Source: Deltaproteobacteria bacterium (GTDB taxonomy: Bacteria > Desulfobacterota > GWC2-55-46). From it: DNA of 64,000 nt. The stretch lies in the NCBI GenBank assembly GCA_015075075.1, contig JABTVA010000012.1:4655-68654 (forward strand), in the 5' to 3' direction. Positions 5,996 through 36,056 of the stretch are shown here, in pieces; the first letter of the stretch is position 1; every line of letters starts with the position of its first letter. Under the pieces are notes generated by a model. It was not told where the DNA came from. It searched no databases and was given only the letters and a program-made list of their open reading frames with translations. Both the position numbers and the translations under genes were made by a program.

Positions 5996-7274
5996 TTATT
6001 TTCTCTTTAATCCGGCCCTTCTCAAATAACCCCTTGCCTCTCCCACCGTGAAGAGCGAGCCTGTCACGCAGACCGCGCCCCGGGGACCGGCCAAGAGAAG
6101 GGCCTCTTTCAGGGCGTCCTTGACGCGCTCCCTTATTATAGCCTCTTTCCCGAACCGCTCGATTCTCCCGGAGAGCGCCCTGGGGCTCTCCGAGCGTTCG
6201 TTCATCGGGCTCGTGGCGATTACCATCCGGCACGAGGGTAGGATCTCTTTTAGTATCCCGTCTATGTCCTTGTCCGCCATTACGCCCAGCACAAGCACGG
6301 GTTTTTTCCCAAGGCCCTCAAGGGCAAGGGCGAGCGTCCTTGCTCCCGCGGGGTTGTGCGCGCCGTCGAGCACCACGAACGGCTTCCGTGACATTACCTC
6401 GAACCTGCCGGGCCATGCGGCTTTCTTGAGCCCTTCCCTTGCCGCCTTTACCTGGATATCGAAGCCCTTTCTCTTTAGGACCTCTACGGCAGCGAGCGCG
6501 CAAGCCGCGTTCCTTACCTGATGGGGGCCCAGAAGCCCGAGCTTCAGGTTTTCAAGGCGCATGTCGATTCCATCGTAAGCGAAGGAGCGCGGCTCGCCTG
6601 TGGCGCTGAAATCCTTACCGATTACATGGAGAGGCGAGGACAGCTTTTTCGCGGTCCTGCTTATTACGGAGAGGGGGCCCTTTCCGTCCTCTCCGGTTAC
6701 CACGGGCCTTCCGGGTTTGATTATCCCCGCCTTTTCAAAGGCTATCTCTTCGAGGCTTTTGCCGAGGAAGCGCGTATGGTCCACGCCTATGTTAGTTATG
6801 ACGGACACTTCCGGAGTTACGACGTTCGTAGCGTCGAACCGTCCTCCCCTGCCGGTCTCGATTACCGCAATGTCGGCCATCTTTTCCCTGAAATGGAGGA
6901 ACGCCATCGCGGCCGGAACTCGAAGAAGGTGAGGGGGGGAGCTGCCGGTCATCTTCGCTGCCGCCGATCTGACGGCCTTGATCGCGCGATGAGCTCCGGT
7001 CCGGCATCATCTTCCCGGAGACGCGTATTCTCTCATTGAACCTTTCGAGGTGGGGCGAGGTGAGGCTCGTCCGAGGCCGGCTTGAAGGGATGGAAGCTAT
7101 GATGGCTGAGGTGGAGCCCTTGCCGTTGGTCCCGGCTACGTGGATAACCGGGAAGCTTTTCTGGGGGTCTTCGAGGAGCGAGACTATCTCTCTTATCCTC
7201 TTAAGCCCCGGCCTTATGCCGTGCTTTTCGAGGCCGTAGAGGAAAGATAGAGCCGGGTCCGGATGCCGCATCAA
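5996..7274 (-). CDS. folC: Bifunctional folylpolyglutamate synthase/dihydrofolate synthase (frameshifted ~6900-7080)
   Basis: [46 protein letters not shown]. Confidence 0.92.
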
Positions 7275-26581: not shown

Positions 26582-27319
26582 TCACGGCCCTATTCCGAGT
26601 ATCGTGACCGGGGTCTCGCTTTCGAAATCACGGAGGACCCGGCCTTCGGTATCCCCGCCCGGCGACTGGGCGCCGGGCTCTTCCGTTATGCCCGGGACGG
26701 TCTGGGTGACAGGCGGCGGCTGGACGATGGTTATCCCTGGCTCGAGCTCTCCCGGCGAGGGGAACGGAGGGAAAAGGAGAGCCGTTTCGGGAGGCACGTC
26801 TGCTGTCGGGGACGGCACATCAGGGAGTACTGGGGGCGTTTCGCTAAGCGCCCTCGGCGGCCCCAGGGACGGCTGTGGCGGAGTCTCAAACGGAGATATC
26901 CCGCCGGCAACCGGAGGCGGAAGGGGCGTCGTGGCCTGGGGTAGCTCTGTAGTGGCAGGCGGAAGAGGCGTGGTCGGTTGAGGGAGCTCGGTCGTGGCCG
27001 GAGGCAGCGGCGTTGTCGCCTGCGGTGTCCCGGGCGCGGCAGGTGGCAGCGGCGTTGTCGTCTGTGGAAGCTGTGTCGTCGGGGAAGGGACGGTTGTCGT
27101 GGGAGGAGGTATCGTCGTAGTGGGCGGAGGGGTCGCGGTAACCGGGGGCGGCGTCGTGGTTGTAGGAGGCGGCAAGGGTGTCGTTGCCTGAGGCGGCCCC
27201 AGGGACGGCGCCCCGGAAGGCGCTCCGGGCGCCGGGGCTGCCCCGACCTGTGCGGACGCTACACCTGCGGTTAAAAAGACGGAAAAGACGGCGGCGAGAG
27301 GTGCGGTCGTCTTCTTCAT
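26582..27319 (-). CDS. Secreted Pro/Thr-rich low-complexity protein
   Basis: RBS AGGAGG, signal peptide ending ASA, repeats of PQATTPLPP(A). Confidence 0.7.
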   Translation of the reverse strand: MKKTTAPLAAVFSVFLTAGVASAQVGAAPAPGAPSGAPSLGPPQATTPLPPPTTTTPPPVTATPPPTTTIPPPTTTVPSPTTQLPQTTTPLPPAAPGTPQATTPLPPATTELPQPTTPLPPATTELPQATTPLPPPVAGGISPFETPPQPSLGPPRALSETPPVLPDVPSPTADVPPETALLFPPFPSPGELEPGITIVQPPPVTQTVPGITEEPGAQSPGGDTEGRVLRDFESETPVTILGIGP

Positions 27320-27408: not shown

Positions 27409-27737
27409 TTACCGCATCCCCATCCTCTGCCGCATCGCGAGGTCCTGCTGGCGCGTTATGAGGAAATCCATCCTCTCGGAGAGCATCTCAAGCCTTTCCC
27501 TCGCATCGGGCGGCATCTCCTCGGCCTGCCCCATCAGGTCTATGAGCTCGCGGAGCGCCATAAGGGTCTCCTGCATGAGCTGCTCCCTTTCCATCGCAAG
27601 GAAGGGGTCGGCAGGCTGCCGGAACTCCTGGGGAGGAGGCAATTGCACGGGTATCGCGCGCCCGCCCGGGCCAGCCGATGCGGAATGCGCCGAAAGGAGC
27701 AGAAGCGAGGCAAGAAGCGGAAGCTAGGTCTTTTCAT
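27409..27737 (-). CDS. Small secreted Met-rich helical protein (one frameshift in signal peptide)
   Basis: RBS GGAGG, signal-like LASLLLLSAHSASA in frame with ORF 27409-27648; 10 Met in last ~65 aa. Confidence 0.55.
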
Positions 27738-27790
27738 GCTCGTCCTCCGCATGGTTTCCTCTCGACTATAGCAGGAACTTTCACGTCGCG

Positions 27791-30700
27791 TTAGGAGGGC
27801 GGCTTCTCGAACCAGGAGATACCCTTCATCTGGAGCCTCCTCCCTTTCCAGAAGGCATATATGACCGGGAGCACGAGCAATTCGAGGAGTACCGCCGTCA
27901 CCATTCCCCCGACCATTGGCGCCGCTATCCTCTTCATCACGTCGGCGCCCGTGCCCGCGCTCCACATTATCGGGAGGAGGCCGGCTATTATGGCCGTCGC
28001 GGTCATCACCTTGGGCCTGACCCTCATGACCGCGCCTTCCCTTATCGCCTCATAGAGGTCTGCGCGCGAATTCATCCTGCCTTCCAAGACCCGTTTCTCA
28101 TACGCGTGCTTGAGGTAGATGAGCATGATTATGCCGGTCTCGGCGTCGAGCCCCGCAAGCGCAAGGAACCCGACAGCCACGCCTATGCTGAAATTATAGT
28201 CCAGAAGGTAAAGCATCCATGTGGCCCCGATGAGGGAGAACGGGATGGCAAGCAGTATTATGAGGCACTCGGTAATGGACTTGAAGTTAAGGTAAAGGAG
28301 GAGGAAGATTATCCCGAGCGTAAGGGGCACTATGACCTTGAGCTTCTCATAGGCCCTTTCCATGTACTCGTACTGCCCCGACCATTCGGCGTAGTATCCG
28401 GACGGGAACTCGATTTTTCTCGCTATCGCCTCCTTTGCTTCTGCGACATAGCTCCCGATGTCCCTTCCCCTCACGTCCACGAATATCCAGTTGGTGAGGA
28501 GGGCGTTCTCTGTGCGCACCGTTGCCGGGCCCTTCCTGACCTCGATGAGCGCGACCTGGGATAGCGGCACGTGCTCACCCCCTCCGGTGGGCACGAGCAC
28601 GCGGCCGATCTTCACGATGTCGTCCCGGAGCTCGCGTTTGTACCTGACGTTAACCGGATATCTTTCAAGGCCCTCGACCGTGGTGGTCACGTTCTCGCCG
28701 CCCACGGCTGACATTATGACCTCCTGGATGTCCCCGATCCTCAGGCCGTACCTTGCGGCCTCCTCGCGCTTGATCTTTATGTCGAGGTAATAGCCTCCTA
28801 CCGCCCTTTCCGCGAAGGCGCTCGATGTGCCTGGCACCTCCCTTAGCGCCGCCTCGATGTCGAGAGAGAGCCTTTCGAGTTCGGCAAGGTCTTTTCCGAA
28901 CACCTTTACCCCCACCGGCGTCCTTATGCCGGTCGAGAGCATGTCTGTCCGGGCCTTTATGGGCATGGTCCATGCGTTTGTGACGCCGGGCATCTGGAGG
29001 GCCGCGTCAAGCTCCTCTACGAGCCTTTCCATGGTCATGCCTGGCCGCCATTCCTTCTCGGGCTTGAGGTTTATGACCGTCTCGAACATCTCGAACGGGG
29101 CCGGGTCGGTTGCGGTCTGCGCGCGACCGGCCTTTCCGAAGACGCTCTCCACCTCCGGGAAGCCCTTTATTATCCTGTTCTGGACCTGGAGCATCTCGGC
29201 GGATTTGGTTATTGATACGCCCGGCAAGGTCACGGGCATGTAGAAGAGCGTGCCCTCGTTCAGGGGCGGCATGAATTCGCTGCCGAGCCTCTTCATCGGG
29301 TAGAGGGTCGAAACCAGCGCAAGGAGCGCGACCGCTATGGTGAGCTTCTTGTGCCGGAGCACCTTTTGGATTGCCGGCCTGTACAGCCATATGAGGGACC
29401 TGGTTATTGGATTTTGCTCCTCCGGCCGTATCCTGCCCCTTATGAAGAAGCCCATGAGCACGGGGACCAGCGTTATGGAGAGGAGCGCGGCGGCCGCCAT
29501 GGCAAAGGTCTTCGTATACGCCAGCGGCTTAAAGAGCCTCCCTTCCTGCGCCTCGAGCGTGAAGATGGGCATGAAGGAGACCGTTATTATGAGTAGCGAG
29601 AAGAATAGCGCCGGCCCGACCTCCTTGGCCGCCTCGGTTATCATGCCCCAGTGGTCCCTGCCTTTTCCCTCCCCTTTCTCGATGTGCTTGTGGGCGTTCT
29701 CTATCATGACGATAGCGCCGTCTATCATCGCTCCGATGGCTATGGCGATGCCGCCGAGGCTCATGATGTTCGCGTTTATGCCCATGAGGTACATGACTAT
29801 GAAAGAGGCGAGTATGCCGACCGGCAGCATTATGATGGCTACGAGCGAGGACCTGAAGTGGAGGAGGAATATGATGCAGACGAGGGAGACCACTATCGAT
29901 TCCTCTATGAGCTTCTCCCGCAGGGTGTCTATTGCCCTGTATATGAGGTCGCTCCTGTCGTAGACGGCCCTTATCGTGACCCCGTCCGGGAGACCGGCCT
30001 CCAGCTCCTTAAGCTTCTCCTTTACGCCCTGTATGACGTCCAGCGCGTTCTCGCCGAAGCGCATGACCACTATGCCGCCGACCGCCTCGCCCTCTCCGTT
30101 AAGCTCGGCCAGCCCCCGCCTTTCGTCGGGCCCGAGCTCGACCCTTGCGACATCCCGTATCCTTATGGGCGTGCCGGTTCTGTCCACCTTGAGGACGATC
30201 TTCTCGATGTCCGGGATGCCCTCGATGTAGCCGAGGCCCCTTACCATGTACTCTCTCTCGGACATCTCGACGACCCTGCCTCCCACGTCGCGGTTGCTCA
30301 TCTCGACGGCCTTCATGACCTCGCCTATGGAGACGCCGTACGTAAGGAGCCTGTTCGGGTCGATATTTACCTGGTACTGCTTCACGAACCCGCCTATGGA
30401 GGCGACCTCGGAAACTCCCGGCACAGAGGTGAGCTGGTATCTTATGTACCAGTCCTGGATAGAGCGTAGCTCCGCGAGGCTCAAGCCCTTGCCCTCGACC
30501 GTGTACTCGTAGACCCATCCCACGCCCGTGGCGTCGGGCCCGAGCGACGGGGTCACGCCAGCCGGGAGCTTGCCCGAGGCGAAGTTCAGGTATTCAAGGA
30601 CCCGGCTCCTGGCCCAGTATATATCCGTGCCGTCCTCGAATATTACGTAGACGAACGAGACCCCGAAAAAAGAATAGCCCCTTACGGTCTTGGCCTTGGG

Positions 30701-30928
30701 CACGGCCAGCATGGCCGTGGTAAGGGGATACGTTACCTGGTCCTCCACGACCTGCGGGGCCTGCCCCGGGAATTCGGTGAAGATTATGACCTGCACGTCG
30801 GAAAGGTCGGGTATGGCGTCGATGGGCGTCCTTGAGACCGAATAGATGCCAAAGCCGACTACGAACGCGGTGAAAAGGAGGATGATAAGCCTGTTCTTTA
30901 CGGATATCTCGATTATCCTGCCAAGCAT
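27791..30928 (-). CDS. cusA: Heavy-metal efflux RND permease, CusA/SilA type
   Basis: DAIPDLSDVQVI, GPDATGVGW, Met triad FYMP / PFEMFET / WTMPI. Confidence 0.95.
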   Translation of the reverse strand: MLGRIIEISVKNRLIILLFTAFVVGFGIYSVSRTPIDAIPDLSDVQVIIFTEFPGQAPQVVEDQVTYPLTTAMLAVPKAKTVRGYSFFGVSFVYVIFEDGTDIYWARSRVLEYLNFASGKLPAGVTPSLGPDATGVGWVYEYTVEGKGLSLAELRSIQDWYIRYQLTSVPGVSEVASIGGFVKQYQVNIDPNRLLTYGVSIGEVMKAVEMSNRDVGGRVVEMSEREYMVRGLGYIEGIPDIEKIVLKVDRTGTPIRIRDVARVELGPDERRGLAELNGEGEAVGGIVVMRFGENALDVIQGVKEKLKELEAGLPDGVTIRAVYDRSDLIYRAIDTLREKLIEESIVVSLVCIIFLLHFRSSLVAIIMLPVGILASFIVMYLMGINANIMSLGGIAIAIGAMIDGAIVMIENAHKHIEKGEGKGRDHWGMITEAAKEVGPALFFSLLIITVSFMPIFTLEAQEGRLFKPLAYTKTFAMAAAALLSITLVPVLMGFFIRGRIRPEEQNPITRSLIWLYRPAIQKVLRHKKLTIAVALLALVSTLYPMKRLGSEFMPPLNEGTLFYMPVTLPGVSITKSAEMLQVQNRIIKGFPEVESVFGKAGRAQTATDPAPFEMFETVINLKPEKEWRPGMTMERLVEELDAALQMPGVTNAWTMPIKARTDMLSTGIRTPVGVKVFGKDLAELERLSLDIEAALREVPGTSSAFAERAVGGYYLDIKIKREEAARYGLRIGDIQEVIMSAVGGENVTTTVEGLERYPVNVRYKRELRDDIVKIGRVLVPTGGGEHVPLSQVALIEVRKGPATVRTENALLTNWIFVDVRGRDIGSYVAEAKEAIARKIEFPSGYYAEWSGQYEYMERAYEKLKVIVPLTLGIIFLLLYLNFKSITECLIILLAIPFSLIGATWMLYLLDYNFSIGVAVGFLALAGLDAETGIIMLIYLKHAYEKRVLEGRMNSRADLYEAIREGAVMRVRPKVMTATAIIAGLLPIMWSAGTGADVMKRIAAPMVGGMVTAVLLELLVLPVIYAFWKGRRLQMKGISWFEKPPS

Positions 30929-30930
30929 CT

Positions 30931-32460
30931 TCAGTGCCCCTCGTGCGAATCCATTGCTGCTCCGTGCCCTTCATGTCCGCCGGTCCCGCCAGGCGGGTGT
31001 CCGGCGTGCGGGCCTGCCCAGCCGTGGCCGGCATGGTCCGCGCCTGCGCCTTCAGCAACGCCCTCTCCGTCGGCACGGCCCGGACTCATGATGTGCCCGG
31101 AACTGTCGTCCTCGGTCTTTCCTGATGCGCCGCTACGCGGGCCCTCTTTCGAGGCGGGCGCTTCCTTCTTGACGGCGCTTCCGCCGTGGTCGTGCGCGCT
31201 CAACCCGGCGATTGCGGCCTTTAGCCTGCTTTCCGAGTCGATGAGGAAGTTGGCCTGGGTAACGACCCATTCTCCTTCGCTTACGCCTTGAAGCACCTGG
31301 AACCAGCCGTCGGCCTTTCCGCCGGTCTTTACTTCCCTGGGCTCGAAGGTCCCGTCCCGCCTGTCGACTATTACTATCTGCCTTTCGCCGGAATCGATTA
31401 CGGCGGAATCCGGCACGGCTACGGCGGACCGGGCTATTTCGGTTGAAAGCTCTACGTTCAGGTACATGCCCAATTTAAGCCGGTGGTCAGGGTTAGGGAG
31501 CTCGAAACGGATTTTCATCGTCCTTACTTCAGTGCCGGCCTCCTGCACGTATCTTATGGAGCCAAGGTGGCTGTATATGTGCTCTATCTTCCCGGCGTAG
31601 ATTTCTCCAGGCGAATAGGCGGGGGTGAGGGTCGCCTTCTGCCCCTTTTTTACGTAGGGCATCTCGTATTCGTATATTTCGCCGTAGACCCACACGGCAG
31701 AGTGGTCTATTATCTTGAAGAGGGGCTCTCCTGCATCTATCCTCTGCCCCTCGACGACCATCTTCTCGGTAACGCTCCCGCTCGAAGGGGCGCTTATGGT
31801 CATGGTCCTCATGACCTTCCCGGATTCCCTCAGGAGCTCAATCTGTTCCTCCGAGATGTCCCAGTATCTGAGGCGCTGCCCTGCGGCTTCGAGGAGGGCC
31901 CGGGCCCCGTTACGGACCTCGGGGTACGGGCTTCCCTTGACCTCTTCCGCGCCCTTCCACGCAAGGAGGTATTCCTCCTGCGCCGAGACGAGGTCGGGGC
32001 TGAAGAGCTCAAGGAGCTGCTGCCCCTTTCCGACCATCTGGTCCGTCCGGTCCACGTAAAGCCTCTCGACCCATCCGGGCACCTTCGCGTTTATGACGAA
32101 GACCCTGTTCTCCACCGGCTCGACCCTGCCCACGGTCCTTATGGTCCTCTCAAGCCTACGGCGGGCGGCCTCCTCCGACCTTACCCCTATGATCTGAAGC
32201 CGCTCCGGGCTTATCCTTACGGTGCCGGGGGCCTCGGGGGCATCGCCCTCGTACACCGGTATGTAGTCCATGCCCATCGAGTCCTTCATGGGCACCGGAG
32301 AGGTTATCTCCGGGTTCATGGGGTTCCGGTAGTAGAGGACCTTCCTTTCCGTCTCGGTACGGACCGGGACCTCGCCGGGCTTAAGGTGCCAGGCAAGCAG
32401 CCCGCCGGCTGCCAGGCCGAGCGCAAGAAAAACGATAGCTGCGGAATAAGGCTTCTTCAT
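30931..32460 (-). CDS. cusB: RND periplasmic adaptor CusB with N-terminal metal-binding motif and His-rich tail
   Basis: YYRNPMNP..KDSMGMDY, SPDLVSAQEEY, FLIDSESRL, His-rich C-terminus. Confidence 0.92.
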   Translation of the reverse strand: MKKPYSAAIVFLALGLAAGGLLAWHLKPGEVPVRTETERKVLYYRNPMNPEITSPVPMKDSMGMDYIPVYEGDAPEAPGTVRISPERLQIIGVRSEEAARRRLERTIRTVGRVEPVENRVFVINAKVPGWVERLYVDRTDQMVGKGQQLLELFSPDLVSAQEEYLLAWKGAEEVKGSPYPEVRNGARALLEAAGQRLRYWDISEEQIELLRESGKVMRTMTISAPSSGSVTEKMVVEGQRIDAGEPLFKIIDHSAVWVYGEIYEYEMPYVKKGQKATLTPAYSPGEIYAGKIEHIYSHLGSIRYVQEAGTEVRTMKIRFELPNPDHRLKLGMYLNVELSTEIARSAVAVPDSAVIDSGERQIVIVDRRDGTFEPREVKTGGKADGWFQVLQGVSEGEWVVTQANFLIDSESRLKAAIAGLSAHDHGGSAVKKEAPASKEGPRSGASGKTEDDSSGHIMSPGRADGEGVAEGAGADHAGHGWAGPHAGHPPGGTGGHEGHGAAMDSHEGH

Positions 32461-32491
32461 CCCTGTCTCCTTATGGTTCTTTCCAGTCCTG

Positions 32492-33745
32492 TCAACGGAG
32501 GTCCAGGTCGGACCCTATGACCCTTTCAAGCTCGGCGGTCCTCTTCATGTACTCCGCTATCGCGGCTATGCGCTCGACCCTGACCCTCTTAAGCTCCCGC
32601 TCGGTGTCGAGGAGGGTAAGGAGGTCGGCCTTCCCGGCCTGGTAGTTCCTGATTGCCGATTCATACGAAAGCTCGACAAGGGGCAGAAGGCTCGTCTCAT
32701 AGAGGTCTATGGTCCTTTCGGCGGCCTCTACCATGAGGACCGCGCTCCTTACCTCGAAGCCCTTGCGGTTCTCTGCTGCCCGGAGCCGCGCCTTTGCCGA
32801 GCGCGCCCCTGCGCGCGCCTCTTCCGAGAGGCTGTCGTACTTGCCCCTCCAGATGGGGATGTTCATCTGGAACATGACCCCGTAGCTGTCGAACCTGCCG
32901 TCCCGCTCCATGGGCTCGACCCCCACCATGAAGTCGGGGTAATAGTTCTTTTCTGCCAGCCTGGCCGAGAGCTCATTAGCCTCGGCCTCGGATTCGAGCG
33001 CCTTTACCTCGGGGTTTTGCGAGAGGGCGGCCCTGGTAAGCCCTTCAAGGTCGAGCGCCGTCCTCTTAAGCGGCAGCGCCGCCCTTTCCGGCAATGCCGA
33101 ATCCTGCGGCCTGTCGAGCAGGGCCTTGAGCCTTGAAGCCGCTATCCCCTTCCTGGCCCCGAGCGAGATTATTTCCTCGTTTACGGCCGCTGTCTCGACG
33201 TTCACCCTTATTACGTCCTGCTGGGAGACCTGCCCTGTCGCGTACTTCGACTGGGCAATCCGGGACATGTCCTCAAGGAGCCTCTTTATGTCCCGGGCGA
33301 TCCTTATGGATTCATCCAGAAGCGCGTAATCGTAATATGCGTTCTTGACCGATTCGACGACCTCGAGCTCCTTGCCCCTCAATTCCGCCTTCGCGGCCCC
33401 GGCCTCCTTCAGGGCGATATTCTCCCTGAGCGGCCTTTTGCCGGGAAAGGGGAACATCTGGCTTATCGAATACCTGGTTGTTGTCGGCGGGCTTCCGAGC
33501 TCGAAAGGGCTTTCTGTAGGTATCTCTTCCTTCTCTATCCGAAAGACCGGGTCGTCCAATGCGCCCTCGGCTTTCGAGCGCGCATAAAACGCCGCGGCCC
33601 TCTCCTGCATGGCCCGTATCTCCGGGTTGTTGGCCAGGGCCTCATCGAGAAGTGGGCGGAGCTGCAGCTCTTCTTCAGGATACGCAGCGCCGGGAAAGGC
33701 AAATGCGAGAACCAGGGCCGCTGCTATAAGAAATGCCCGCATCAC
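32492..33745 (-). CDS. TolC-family outer membrane channel (CusC role)
   Basis: ALANNPEI, ISQMFPFPGKR, duplicated OEP repeats; upstream of cusB. Confidence 0.9.
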   Translation of the reverse strand: MMRAFLIAAALVLAFAFPGAAYPEEELQLRPLLDEALANNPEIRAMQERAAAFYARSKAEGALDDPVFRIEKEEIPTESPFELGSPPTTTRYSISQMFPFPGKRPLRENIALKEAGAAKAELRGKELEVVESVKNAYYDYALLDESIRIARDIKRLLEDMSRIAQSKYATGQVSQQDVIRVNVETAAVNEEIISLGARKGIAASRLKALLDRPQDSALPERAALPLKRTALDLEGLTRAALSQNPEVKALESEAEANELSARLAEKNYYPDFMVGVEPMERDGRFDSYGVMFQMNIPIWRGKYDSLSEEARAGARSAKARLRAAENRKGFEVRSAVLMVEAAERTIDLYETSLLPLVELSYESAIRNYQAGKADLLTLLDTERELKRVRVERIAAIAEYMKRTAELERVIGSDLDLR

Positions 33746-33817
33746 TAAGCCTCCTTGCCGAATTCATTGCCGTACAACGAAAACATATATTCCCTGCGCC
33801 GAAAAGTCCAGCGGATT

Positions 33818-33834
33818 TTCTACCTTATGTAGAA
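33818..33834. promoter_or_regulatory. Candidate BlaI/CopY-type operator upstream of the TolC-cusBA genes
   Basis: Perfect palindrome TTCTAC-CTTAT-GTAGAA; near-identical site at 35175-35191. Confidence 0.65.
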
Positions 33835-33851
33835 TCTGTCTCCAAAAAAAA

Positions 33852-34739
33852 TCAATGCCCCTTGTGAGAGCAGTGGCTCTTGCAGTCGTCTATCAGCTCG
33901 GCGTGGGTCTCGCAACGCTCCATGGTGCACTCATGAGAAAGCGGGCCCGCATAGATGGGCATGGCAAGGGATGCCGCGATGAGAAGGGCGATTGCCGCGC
34001 TCGCCGCCGCTTTCCCGGGCGTGACTGAGAACGCTGTCTTTTTTCCCTCGACAAGCCTCCGTATCCTGCCCGAGACGTCCGTCTGGCTGCCAGTTATCGA
34101 AGGGACAGGCAGCCAGATATTGTTCCTTGCTACCTTGAGTATGGCGGATGCGAGCGTGAGCGGCCCGCAGGAAGACCTTGCAGCCGAGTCGTCCGCCTCC
34201 TCTTCCCTCTTTAGCCTTGAATACGAGGCGAGCTGGCGCGCGGCCGGGATATAGAAGAATGCGTCCCTGAGGAAGCCGAAGACGAAAAACCTCAACGGGT
34301 CCCTTCTCCTTTTATGGTTTAACTCATGCAGGAGGACGGCCCTCGCTTCTTTCCTTGAGAGGCTTTTGAGGAGCCCCGTAGATATGTAGACCCTGGGCCT
34401 TAGAAGACCGAAGGTAAACGCGGCCCTGACGCTCTCGTCTTTTATGATGGCGAGCCCGCCCTCGAAGTGATGCACCGGGAGTTTCCTTACAGCCCTCTTA
34501 GTGCCTGCGAAGGCCGAGACTCCGCGGAAAGCGGCATACGCGAAGCCCGTGGCGACGAGGATTGCCCCGGACCAGAAGAACGCGAGCTTGCCGAGGGAAA
34601 GGAACTCGACGCACATGACGAGGAGAGACTGGCAGGCCTCAAGCACGCTACCTGTAAAGGATACGAGCAAAGGCAGCGCGTAAATGAGCCATGCGGCTGA
34701 AAACGCGAATACGGATATGAAAAGGAGAGGGGCGGCCAT
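33852..34739 (-). CDS. M56 family (BlaR1-like) membrane metallopeptidase with Cys/His-rich C-terminal tail
   Basis: AFTFGLLRPRVYIS, HELNH..RRDP, EEEADD; TGATG coupling to upstream repressor. Confidence 0.88.
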   Translation of the reverse strand: MAAPLLFISVFAFSAAWLIYALPLLVSFTGSVLEACQSLLVMCVEFLSLGKLAFFWSGAILVATGFAYAAFRGVSAFAGTKRAVRKLPVHHFEGGLAIIKDESVRAAFTFGLLRPRVYISTGLLKSLSRKEARAVLLHELNHKRRRDPLRFFVFGFLRDAFFYIPAARQLASYSRLKREEEADDSAARSSCGPLTLASAILKVARNNIWLPVPSITGSQTDVSGRIRRLVEGKKTAFSVTPGKAAASAAIALLIAASLAMPIYAGPLSHECTMERCETHAELIDDCKSHCSHKGH

Positions 34740-35152
34740 CAGCCTTCCTCCACAGACTTAAGCTCTTTCTTTTTCGTCTCAATGAGCGTTGACAGGCGTT
34801 CGAGCTCATCCGGGTCTGCGTCCGCCAGCGCGTCCACGAACGAGGCGCATATGCCGGACGAGGATATCTCCATTATGCCCCGGAATACGTCCTGGGAAAC
34901 GGCCCTGGCGAACTCGTCTTTCGTATAGGCGGGCCTGAACAGGAATACGCTCGCCACTTTGACTTGGTCACAAGCCCTTGTTCACGAGCCTCTCAAGTAC
35001 CGTTAGGACGGTCGTGAGGCGACCTGCCTGGAGAAGCCCTGAATGGACCTCCTGCCGCTCGCCTCCCCGCTCTTCCAGAGGAACTCCATTATCTCCTGCT
35101 CAAGGGGGCCCAGGAGCTTCCCGTAACCGTCGAATCTGGCCTTTTTGGTCAT
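34739..35152 (-). CDS. BlaI/MecI/CopY family transcriptional repressor (frameshifted in assembly)
   Basis: LGPLEQEIMEFLW, TTVLTVLERLVNKGL, F..AYTKDEF, FVDAL. Confidence 0.85.
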
Positions 35153-35168
35153 CACCTTCTCCGCTTCC

Positions 35169-35197
35169 AATATATTCGACAAGGCGTAGAAAGTCAA
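35169..35197 (-). promoter_or_regulatory. Sigma70 promoter of the repressor gene with operator filling the spacer
   Basis: TTGACT-N17-TATATT; the 17-bp spacer is TTCTAC-GCCTT-GTCGAA. Confidence 0.75.
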
Positions 35198-35248
35198 GAG
35201 GAATTCCTTGCCAAAGAGGGTTGTCTTGCTGTACCGTATTTAAAATCA

Positions 35249-35389
35249 GGCGACTTCTAAAGCGATCTTTTCCCCGGACTCTGCGTAGTTCACGGAATAA
35301 AAATGCTCACATATTGTCATATATGCTCCGCTTTTTATTCCCGGCCTTCCAGGAAAAGCGGGAAAAATCTCTAATTTTAAGAGGTTGCC
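35249..35389 (+). mobile_element. Family A element, copy 4
   Basis: GGCGACTTCTAAA..AGAGGTTGCC ends and full core. Confidence 0.85.
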
Positions 35390-35423
35390 TTCAATAAACG
35401 TTTCTGTTCTTTTCGGAGGCTTT

Positions 35424-36056
35424 TTGGGTTTCTTTATAACATTCGAGGGCATAGAGGGCTGCGGGAAATCCACCCAGAAGGAGCTCCTTAAGGGCCATCT
35501 CGAACGTAAGGGCAAAGAGGTCCTTACCGTAAGGGAGCCTGGCGGCACTCTCCTTGGCGAGAAGGTACGGGCCGTCCTCCTTGAGCGCGGGGACGAGCCC
35601 ATTGACCCGTGGGCCGAGCTCTTCCTCTACCAGGCATGCAGGGCGCAGCTCGTGAAACGCGTCATAAGGCCGGCCCTTGAGGCAGGCAAGGTGGTCATAT
35701 CCGACCGTTTCTACGACTCGACCCTCGCCTACCAGGGCTATGGAAGGGGCCTTGACAGGGCGGCTGTAAAAAAGCTCAACGCCCTCGGCTCCGGCGGCCT
35801 TGTACCGGACCTGACCTTCCTCATAGACTGCGGAGTGGAAGAGGGCTTGAAGAGGGCCTTTTCGCGCATAGCATCCGCAAAAGGCGCAAGGGAGGACCGC
35901 TTCGAAAGGGAGGACATCGACTTCCACAGGCGCGTAAGGGAGGGGTTCCTCAGGGCGGCAAAACGGGAGCCGAGGATAAGGGTCGTGGACGGCTCCGCTG
36001 AAATCTCTACGGTCCACAAGGATATATGTGATATCATTGACAGGGCGATGGGCTAA
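35424..36056 (+). CDS. tmk: Thymidylate kinase
   Basis: FITFEGIEGCGKSTQ, REPGGT, DRFYDSTLAYQG; TTG start after GGAGG. Confidence 0.96.
   Translation: MGFFITFEGIEGCGKSTQKELLKGHLERKGKEVLTVREPGGTLLGEKVRAVLLERGDEPIDPWAELFLYQACRAQLVKRVIRPALEAGKVVISDRFYDSTLAYQGYGRGLDRAAVKKLNALGSGGLVPDLTFLIDCGVEEGLKRAFSRIASAKGAREDRFEREDIDFHRRVREGFLRAAKREPRIRVVDGSAEISTVHKDICDIIDRAMG

Follow-up and report, generated by a model that had tools for sequence, protein, structure and literature searches.

The window analysed here is 64,000 nucleotides (nt) of DNA from Deltaproteobacteria bacterium (assembly GCA_015075075.1, contig JABTVA010000012.1, positions 4,655–68,654, forward strand). On its minus strand, a gene for a BlaI/MecI/CopY-family repressor and a gene for a short, BlaR1-like M56 protease precede the genes of a CusA-type metal exporter. 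We consider it probable that this pair forms a regulated-proteolysis switch for copper or silver export, of the kind represented by PetR/PetP. The evidence lies in the gene content, its conservation and synteny in relatives, a shared palindrome, the phyletic pattern and the type (CusA and CopA) of the exporters. Reading from 35197 to 27409, the order is promoter-like site, repressor, M56 protease, terminator-like hairpin, tolC, cusB, cusA and a Met-rich open reading frame (ORF), all on the minus strand, as the preliminary description had it when it placed the pair directly upstream of, and co-oriented with, tolC–cusB–cusA. It had also drawn attention to the TGATG coupling of the two genes, in which the protease ATG shares one base with the repressor TGA, and to the protease motif HELNH. 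Both are there. What it missed is that the repressor gene is not intact in the window: this gene is spread over three frames by five deletions that amount to 6 nt.

How might such a switch work? The repressor would bind the sequence TTCKAC-N5-GTMGAA at its own promoter, ahead of tolC–cusB–cusA and ahead of a second locus that encodes a YHS protein and a Cu(I) P1B-ATPase. The co-transcribed M56 protease would have its zinc domain in the cytoplasm, with a C-x6-C loop and a Cys/His tail facing the periplasm. There, the thiolates of the loop and the tail would be bridged or ordered by a soft metal ion, Cu(I) or Ag(I) being the likeliest. The metal-bound thiolates would activate the protease, which would cut the repressor in its dimerisation region, at a Ser–Phe pair aligned with N101–F102 of MecI. 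Once cut, the repressor would release the efflux regulon from repression.

The M56 protease and its conserved cysteines

Does the second gene of the pair encode a protease of the BlaR1 kind? Its ORF matches PF05569 (36 bits, cut-off 31) and PF01435 (36.5 bits). A search of 5.8 billion proteins returned 502 matches at E ≤ 0.001, of which the best 120 of the 502 were listed, and a profile search of 1.84 billion cluster representatives returned 296 at E ≤ 1e-30 and 74,817 at E ≤ 0.001. In an alignment of 62 full-length homologues (32–88% identity), residues H138, E139, H142, E179 and D183 are invariant, and HExxH is present in 36/36 M56 ORFs of relatives. The AlphaFold2 model, at a mean predicted local distance difference test (pLDDT) score of 81.5, contains helices at residues 2–35, 46–86 and 241–263 and a confident protease domain. 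The three top folds in the Protein Data Bank (PDB) are cryo-electron microscopy structures of S. aureus BlaR1 (8EXP, 8EXS and 8EXQ; probability 1.00, E 5.6e-4 to 8e-4), with moderate template modelling (TM) scores of 0.41–0.45. At 31 and 20 bits, the NCBIfam BlaR1 models are below their cut-offs of 400 and 1200. The sequence ends 32 residues past the last helix and lacks a penicillin-binding (transpeptidase-like) domain. This absence had been remarked on before and stands; as an oddity it does not, since about 6% of some 15,000 M56 proteins bear a transpeptidase domain according to the available text of a 2026 preprint, which describes short, domain-less tails as the commonest (10.64898/2026.04.08.717257). 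In all likelihood the M56 protein is the protease that acts on the BlaI-like repressor.

On which side of the membrane would the cysteines lie? Segments rich in K/R (five each) flank the protease domain on both sides, K and R are absent from the loop that joins helices 1 and 2, and the tail carries a net negative charge. Together with hydropathy, this charge distribution predicts a cytoplasmic protease domain and places the C-x6-C loop and the tail on the periplasmic side, which answers the call in the preliminary description for a prediction of tail topology.

The C-terminus of the protein reads HECTMERCETHAELIDDCKSHCSHKGH, with four Cys and five His, and a C-x6-C segment spans residues 36–43; the sequence bears out the earlier reading of both. 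Cysteines C36, C43 and C290 are invariant (62/62 homologues), and C271, C276, C286 and H289 are at least 90% conserved. The C-x6-C segment, a coil in the AlphaFold2 model, is present in 36/36 ORFs of relatives. A strict form of the tail motif was found in 27 of these 36 and in 47 of the 62 aligned homologues; a loose form, C-x4-C...C-x3-C, in 33/36 and 53/62, respectively. Failure of the tail to be conserved among homologues had been put forward as a possible refutation of metal sensing, and what we find is a Cys/His tail and a C-x6-C loop conserved in the 62. Judged by eye, the last 45 residues contain four Cys in most of the approximately 60 top-scoring cluster representatives, the others being fragments and some exceptions. 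Weaker-scoring short M56 proteins have other Cys-, His- or Met-rich tails. We lean towards the view that the cysteines of the loop and the tail sense copper or silver.

Attachment of a c-type haem by the tail was considered and dropped, because the motif is CxxHC rather than CxxCH. In a sister clade of short M56 proteases, the first loop holds a Cys/His pair that does not vary, and the tail is rich in His (e.g. HCPHHHE..VLH).

Linkage to cus genes in relatives

Do the relatives keep the protease beside the exporter? In a survey of 41 genomes of the same order, the window's own included, an M56 match was obtained in 37 and a strong one in 34. Synteny was examined at 37 loci from 33 related genomes. 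Seven of the 37 are too short downstream to judge; among the 30 with enough downstream sequence, tolC/cusB/cusA come right after the M56 gene in 26. Linkage of the homologues to metal efflux genes, on which the first account had also been willing to be refuted, is thus borne out. A blaI gene is detectable upstream of M56 in 31/37 loci.

Five genomes have a lone M56 gene that adjoins tmk/holB, the same neighbours as in the window. In all five, the sole BlaI region is elsewhere, directly upstream of tolC–cusBA and flanked by two palindromes, and matches to YHS and/or P1B-ATPase follow further downstream. The exact palindrome is absent from the lone-M56 loci themselves. Five other genomes of the order are without this M56 family; none of them has a PF03965 gene (0/5), and a CusA-family gene scores over the cut-off in 3/5.

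Outside the order and family, the arrangement varies. One genome of another family has the single cluster blaI–M56–tolC–cusBA–YHS–ICMT–CopA. In a genome from another class, blaI and tolC–cusBA are accompanied by a gene for a PCYCGC protein and by an M56 gene whose product is 26% identical and ends in a different Cys tail; genome G069, which belongs to another class, combines blaI with a gene for a Cys-tailed M56 protein and has no cus gene within 10 kb. A metagenome scan with the His/Cys-tailed sister clade yielded eight loci, only three of them longer than 3.4 kb, too few for a count. On one contig of that clade (L107), the blaI–M56 pair stands between a cusA fragment with a gene for a Met-rich secreted protein and a gene for a His-rich P1B ATPase; no metal gene could be recognised on the two other contigs above 3.4 kb or in one further genome.

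Two relatives have variant loci. On contig C2 of genome G013 (L071/L075), a second blaI paralogue lies between two palindromes and is followed by a gene for a secreted His-rich protein and by tolC; it has no M56 gene of its own, and one protease may serve two repressors there. On contig C104 of G004 (L023 = L002), a 77%-complete metagenome-assembled genome, all that is left of cusA between cusB and the Met-rich gene is its first 41 residues and a small inverted piece, the result of a deletion or a misassembly.

A shared palindrome and its regulon

What could tie the repressor to the exporter genes? The 17-nt palindrome TTCKAC-N5-GTMGAA occurs twice in the window, versus 0.02 expected, and at four sites in the 2.6-Mb, 93%-complete genome, versus one for a reversed-pattern control. 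The first copy exactly fills the 17-nt spacer between TTGACT and TATATT of the repressor promoter. This promoter is the only sigma-70-like site found in 33600–35400 (10/12 matches), and the promoter/palindrome block is kept in 4/4 aligned loci. The second copy is 18 nt past the M56 stop, ahead of tolC. Among the 37 loci of relatives, an exact palindrome stands upstream of blaI in 23 and, 17–50 nt after the M56 stop, in 20.

The third and fourth sites of the genome lie 31 bp apart in a divergent promoter region on contig C10 (30542–30589; L060, approximately 6540–6590). On one side are genes for an ICMT-like methyltransferase and a His-rich membrane protein; on the other, for a 68-residue YHS protein, a 775-residue P1B ATPase and an S-adenosylmethionine (SAM) methyltransferase. 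The ATPase has two YHS domains and the motifs CPC, YN and MALSS, which we take to denote the Cu(I) subgroup. In five relatives the extra palindromes, in a tally that leaves out three sites, mostly precede YHS proteins, a YHS–P1B ATPase, a second blaI–tolC operon or secreted proteins. These secreted proteins were not counted as metal proteins, TRASH/YHS matches reaching 18.6 and 21.2 bits against cut-offs of 27–30.

The genome has one PF03965 gene. As far as sequence can tell, the shared palindrome supports a tie between the repressor and both cusCBA and the locus of the Cu(I)-type P1B-ATPase. It is very likely that the repressor controls its own promoter, tolC–cusBA and the YHS/CopA locus.

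The exporters, the operon-end gene and other regulators

Which metal would the exporter carry? At 1251.6 bits, the match of CusA to TIGR00914 is well over the cut-off of 701, and the protein scores 1257 bits against E. coli CusA versus 561 against ZneA. Met stands where the tagged chain of E. coli CusA has residues 580, 630 and 679. These correspond to the methionine site that we take to be M573, M623 and M672, the offset of 7 between the two numberings being our reading of the chain length. The three-methionine site is kept. The genome holds one CusA-type pump. The NCBIfam CusB model gives 150 bits on the window CusB, below its cut-off of 390.

At its C-terminus this CusB is extended by about 80 residues, many of them His and Gly (HAGHGWAGPHAGHPPGGTGGHEGHGAAMDSHEGH; window 30931–31170, minus strand); the extension falls outside the E. 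coli-type CusB models.

No CusF gene was seen, and the operon ends in a gene for a Met-rich secreted protein without a Pfam family. In relatives this protein has about 105–110 residues and a signal peptide, and its gene follows cusA in 7/37 loci and, by tblastn, in 4/6 genome-contig loci. The window copy has a 1-nt deletion in an A-run and an in-frame TAG where G003 has TGG. The Met-rich protein may be a CusF-like periplasmic helper.

Are the usual copper regulators present? The window's contig has no CusS-like, CueR or CsoR gene, in keeping with the earlier remark that the window lacks CusRS and CueR. Genome-wide, the best match to the CueR model TIGR02044 is 21.5 bits (cut-off 147.4), and the CsoR family PF02583 has no match in the 93%-complete genome.

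What do the cysteines read?

The same switch might have cysteines that sense some other thiophilic metal (Zn, Cd or Hg), or oxidants or sulfide, with the efflux regulon as just one output. Cys4His2-type motifs bind Zn(II) and Cd(II) well, and the sequence does not fix the metal. Related short M56 proteins have quite different Cys-, His- or Met-rich tails, and the ICMT-like and His-rich membrane proteins also stand at the C10 palindromes. However, both exporter types found near palindromes are of the monovalent Cu/Ag kind, to judge by the three methionines of CusA and by the CPC/YN/MALSS motifs and YHS domains of the ATPase, and the loci examined have no czc-type, mer or redox-defence gene beside the palindromes. 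We regard a different signal as unlikely.

Might the cysteines instead have a structural role, as disulfides or as a fixed Zn knuckle capping the helices, while the signal is read elsewhere? That signal could be cytoplasmic copper, acting at the protease domain or the repressor, or it could come through a partner such as the Met-rich secreted protein or CusB. Invariance says nothing of dynamics, and the tail is short and poorly modelled. In the available text on PetP, two loop Met rather than a tail are proposed to be used, and here a conserved Met-rich secreted protein is found at the operon end. On the other hand, that protein was detected after cusA at only the 7 of 37 loci given above, and the repressor has neither a conserved Cys/His site nor the CopY C-terminal Cys motif. 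Neither DsbB nor VKOR was found in the 93%-complete genome, so that periplasmic thiols may stay reduced and stable disulfides are less likely. A purely structural role is, in our judgement, equally improbable, and copper or silver sensing by the loop and tail remains the reading that we prefer.

The repressor gene

If the switch is to operate in this organism, is its repressor gene functional? The window copy is not one ORF. Pieces of Penicillinase_R (PF03965) are found in three frames, with in-frame stops: profile positions 1–28 at 35003–35152, 21–50 at 34968–35099 and 55–114 at 34739–34981. The last fragment scores 23.8 bits (cut-off 22.6), and 37.2 bits in the whole-genome search with its in-frame neighbours. 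Alignment with three relatives shows the window to be 1+2+1+1+1 bases short within about 100 nt. We compared Logan contigs of four public runs, from four wastewater or sludge metagenome studies, over 34300–35500. In each of the 4/4 runs one contig spans 34300–35290, with 3–6 other letters different, and each contig has inserts after 34954 (G), 34974 (C), 35017 (G), 35033 (GA) and 35050 (C) that restore a single frame. The only other differences in blaI are two substitutions beside the first indel (34953 and 34956), and the adjoining M56 gene is identical between the window and the run contigs. Those indels that are visible in the alignment of relatives sit in short G/C runs.

The differences in blaI, nearly all of them clustered indels, thus look like consensus error and not divergence. 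Since near-identical contigs from all four public runs hold the six bases, the comparison makes it quite probable that the frameshifts are a consensus error of this assembly. The alternative is a switch that is dead in this strain, with the repressor a pseudogene and the efflux genes expressed constitutively. A gene spread over three frames with in-frame stops would suit this, as would the disrupted Met-rich gene at the operon end. Against it stand the six bases in every public run, the clustering of the indels and the identity of the flanking M56 gene, and we consider a dead switch improbable. A programmed frameshift or an alternative code was ruled out, the relatives and the public contigs having the extra bases.

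What would the intact repressor look like? Orthologues of about 135–147 residues exist in relatives. That of G003 aligns over its full length with MecI (E 1.8e-4) and matches BlaI chains and PDB chain 2g9w_A (E 2.2e-10). Its S–F pair lies opposite N101–F102, the scissile bond of MecI. The surrounding ASFVD is common, not universal (SSLVD, ASIVD, VNFVD and ASFLD also occur). The C-terminal CxC or CxCx4CxC motif of the CopY type is present neither in the window fragments nor in the orthologues compared, as had been noted of the repressor at the outset. In many orthologues, the one Cys of the repressor (GICASF) gives way to A, V or L. Sensing of metal by the repressor itself, in the manner of CopY, was therefore ruled out, the orthologues having no conserved Cys/His site.

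The case weighed

What speaks against a copper- or silver-responsive proteolytic switch? Several observations do. The M56 gene has no adjoining blaI or cus genes in 4/30 loci. Of the 301 genomes that sample the phylum, just 10 have the tight M56 family, and almost all of these belong to one class; the synteny counts are therefore largely one inherited arrangement and not independent events. The exact palindrome is absent upstream of blaI in 14/37 loci and after M56 in 17/37, an extra site in G006 is not close to any recognisable metal gene, and in two relatives the reversed-pattern control gave 2 and 3 matches versus 2 and 5 real ones. A full-length CusS/CztS-like kinase is encoded elsewhere in the genome (contig C23, 21342–22733, minus strand; TIGR01386 257.8 bits, cut-off 292.55). 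The tail is modelled at low confidence (pLDDT 46–61), and the six conserved periplasmic cysteines could be disulfides or a structural Zn site. The window repressor, as given, cannot be translated in one frame. Finally, several steps are inferred: that the repressor binds its operator DNA, that metal binds and cleavage follows, which signal is read and what the cysteines do. The metal-sensing mechanism of the preliminary description is nonetheless plausible, because the tail is conserved, the cus linkage holds, the palindrome is shared and the pump is CusA-like, with its three methionines.

Layout of the locus

Table 1. Features of the repressor–protease–exporter locus (window positions).
Feature	Position	Strand	Basis or detail
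Promoter-like site of the repressor gene	35169–35197	−	-35 TTGACT 35197–35192, 17-nt spacer, -10 TATATT 35174–35169
Operator candidate 1, TTCTACGCCTTGTCGAA	35191–35175	−	exact promoter spacer
blaI/mecI/copY-family repressor gene (Penicillinase_R)	34739–35152	−	three-frame Pfam fragments
Short BlaR1-like M56/M48 zinc metalloprotease, 295 residues	33852–34739	−	Pfam, NCBIfam, AlphaFold2 model
C36-x6-C43, loop between membrane helices 1 and 2	34611–34634	−	conservation; predicted periplasmic face
HELNH, residues 138–142, zinc-binding HExxH	34314–34328	−	conservation
C-terminal tail, residues 264–295, C271-x4-C276-x2-H279...C286-x2-H289-C290	33855–33950	−	candidate periplasmic metal-binding motif
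Terminator-like hairpin and T-run, end of the M56 gene	33872–33856	−	sequence
Operator candidate 2, TTCTACATAAGGTAGAA, upstream of tolC	33834–33818	−	palindrome match
tolC, outer-membrane factor (TolC/OEP), 417 residues	32492–33745	−	PF02321, E 3.8e-47
cusB, CusB-like membrane fusion protein, 509 residues, His-rich C-terminal extension	30931–32460	−	PF16576, E 3.5e-65
cusA, CusA-type heavy-metal resistance–nodulation–division (RND) pump, 1045 residues	27791–30928	−	TIGR00914, 1251.6 bits
Small Met-rich gene, operon end	27409–27730	−	79-residue ORF at 27409–27648; 5' part disrupted

Two further elements flank the operon. Directly upstream of the repressor promoter is a repeat of about 130 nt (window 35255–35400) that also matches itself on the opposite strand. 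At least 40 copies at 86–95% identity are present in the genome (151 candidates, 40 scored), and an Rfam scan of the repeat gave nothing at E ≤ 0.1. At this repeat the public short-read contigs end and the depth climbs at least 100-fold. Downstream of the operon (26582–27319, minus strand), a secreted Pro/Thr-rich repeat protein of 245 residues (TTPLPPATTELPQ...) is encoded; it has no Pfam match, and its N-terminus is kept in two same-genus relatives.

Comparison with known systems

How does the pair compare with regulators already described? The preliminary description knew of no metal-sensing regulated-proteolysis system that had been characterised. The novelty that this implies is not borne out. 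In the available text on Synechocystis sp. PCC 6803, PetR, a BlaI/CopY-family repressor, is degraded by PetP only in the presence of copper (bioRxiv 10.1101/2020.07.31.226407; Garcia-Canas et al., PNAS 2021). According to the same preprint text, the targets of PetRP are petE/petJ and two small genes, a plastocyanin/cytochrome c6 switch and not copper export, and PetP has four predicted helices, with two Met (M53 and M58) in the loop between helices 2 and 3 as proposed copper ligands (10.1101/2020.07.31.226407). According to the available text of a 2023 review, PetRP produces no response in copper homeostasis, and no role is known for the BlaR homologues of heterotrophs (PMC10141476).

The likeness to PetRP, as that system is described in these sources, is close. 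In both, the repressor stop overlaps the start of a gene for a short M48/M56 membrane protease without a penicillin-binding domain, in one operon. The protease domain of PetRP is cytoplasmic, the same placement that is predicted here. The operators, GAC-N5-GTC for PetR and TTC(G/T)AC-N5-GT(A/C)GAA here, both have a 5-nt spacer. There are differences too. The protease here has three helices, with C-x6-C in the corresponding loop and a Cys4/His tail, PetP being compared by its description; and the putative targets here are copper-efflux genes, whereas those reported for PetRP are not concerned with export.

With BlaR1/BlaI and MecR1/MecI of Staphylococcus and Bacillus the pair shares an M56 HExxH protease, for which BlaR1 is the best fold, and a repressor gene that comes first in the operon; the G003 orthologue of the repressor aligns end to end with MecI and has F opposite the scissile position. 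Unlike BlaR1 and MecR1, the protease here has no C-terminal transpeptidase-like sensor and one helix fewer before the protease domain, and metal exporters apparently take the place of beta-lactamase and PBP2a as targets.

CopY of Enterococcus hirae and CopR/CopY of Firmicutes belong, like the repressor here, to PF03965; they share with it a role in repressing copper export, here a proposed one, and an operator of related style. CopY binds metal itself, via a C-terminal CxCx4CxC motif. That Cys motif is absent from the orthologues here, whereas a membrane protease partner co-occurs with the repressor. The cop box is given, in the available text of its source, as TACAnnTGTA (PMC7253601). The exporter pair, a CusA-type RND pump and a Cu(I) P1B ATPase, is the same as that under CusRS/CueR in E. 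coli, but the input here would be a repressor and a protease in place of a two-component system and a MerR activator.

For CenIR of Clostridioides difficile, the part of the preprint available gives an unknown signal and a cell-envelope regulon (10.64898/2026.04.08.717257). As described there, CenIR and other BlaIR systems that lack a transpeptidase domain resemble the present pair in having a short BlaR-like protease, a short, domain-less C-terminal region and a BlaI partner. The present pair differs in that its regulon suggests a particular signal and its tail contains a ligand-like motif.

Our literature searches, which left most subscription journals outside their coverage, found no BlaI/BlaR-type regulator of metal efflux. 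We conclude that a copper-dependent BlaI/BlaR-type proteolytic switch is already known in PetR/PetP, and that what is new here is the candidate sensor motif and the putative copper-efflux regulon.

Implications

Could the scheme extend beyond this lineage? Short-tailed BlaR-like proteases may conceivably be a broad, so far unrecognised class of transmembrane metal sensors, in which putative ligand residues of the first loop accompany clade-specific Cys-, His- or Met-rich tails. Acting with BlaI, they would be the primary regulators of Cu/Ag export (CusCBA plus CopA) in several phyla and replace CusRS/CueR. The M56 family of this locus would then supply the ligand set missing from PetP; we put this forward tentatively, as a doubtful generalisation.

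The system is directly testable. For copper perception by PetP, the accounts available point to no more than two loop methionines, and the M56 family described here offers a compact, strongly conserved set of candidate ligands, a clear operator and a textbook copper-exporter regulon. It also provides a concrete example for the recent view, as presented in the available text, that most BlaR-like proteins sense signals other than beta-lactams. If confirmed, the switch would give the first demonstration, as far as our literature searches reach, of metal resistance under BlaI/BlaR-type control, and it would explain how copper export is regulated in a lineage without CueR or CsoR.

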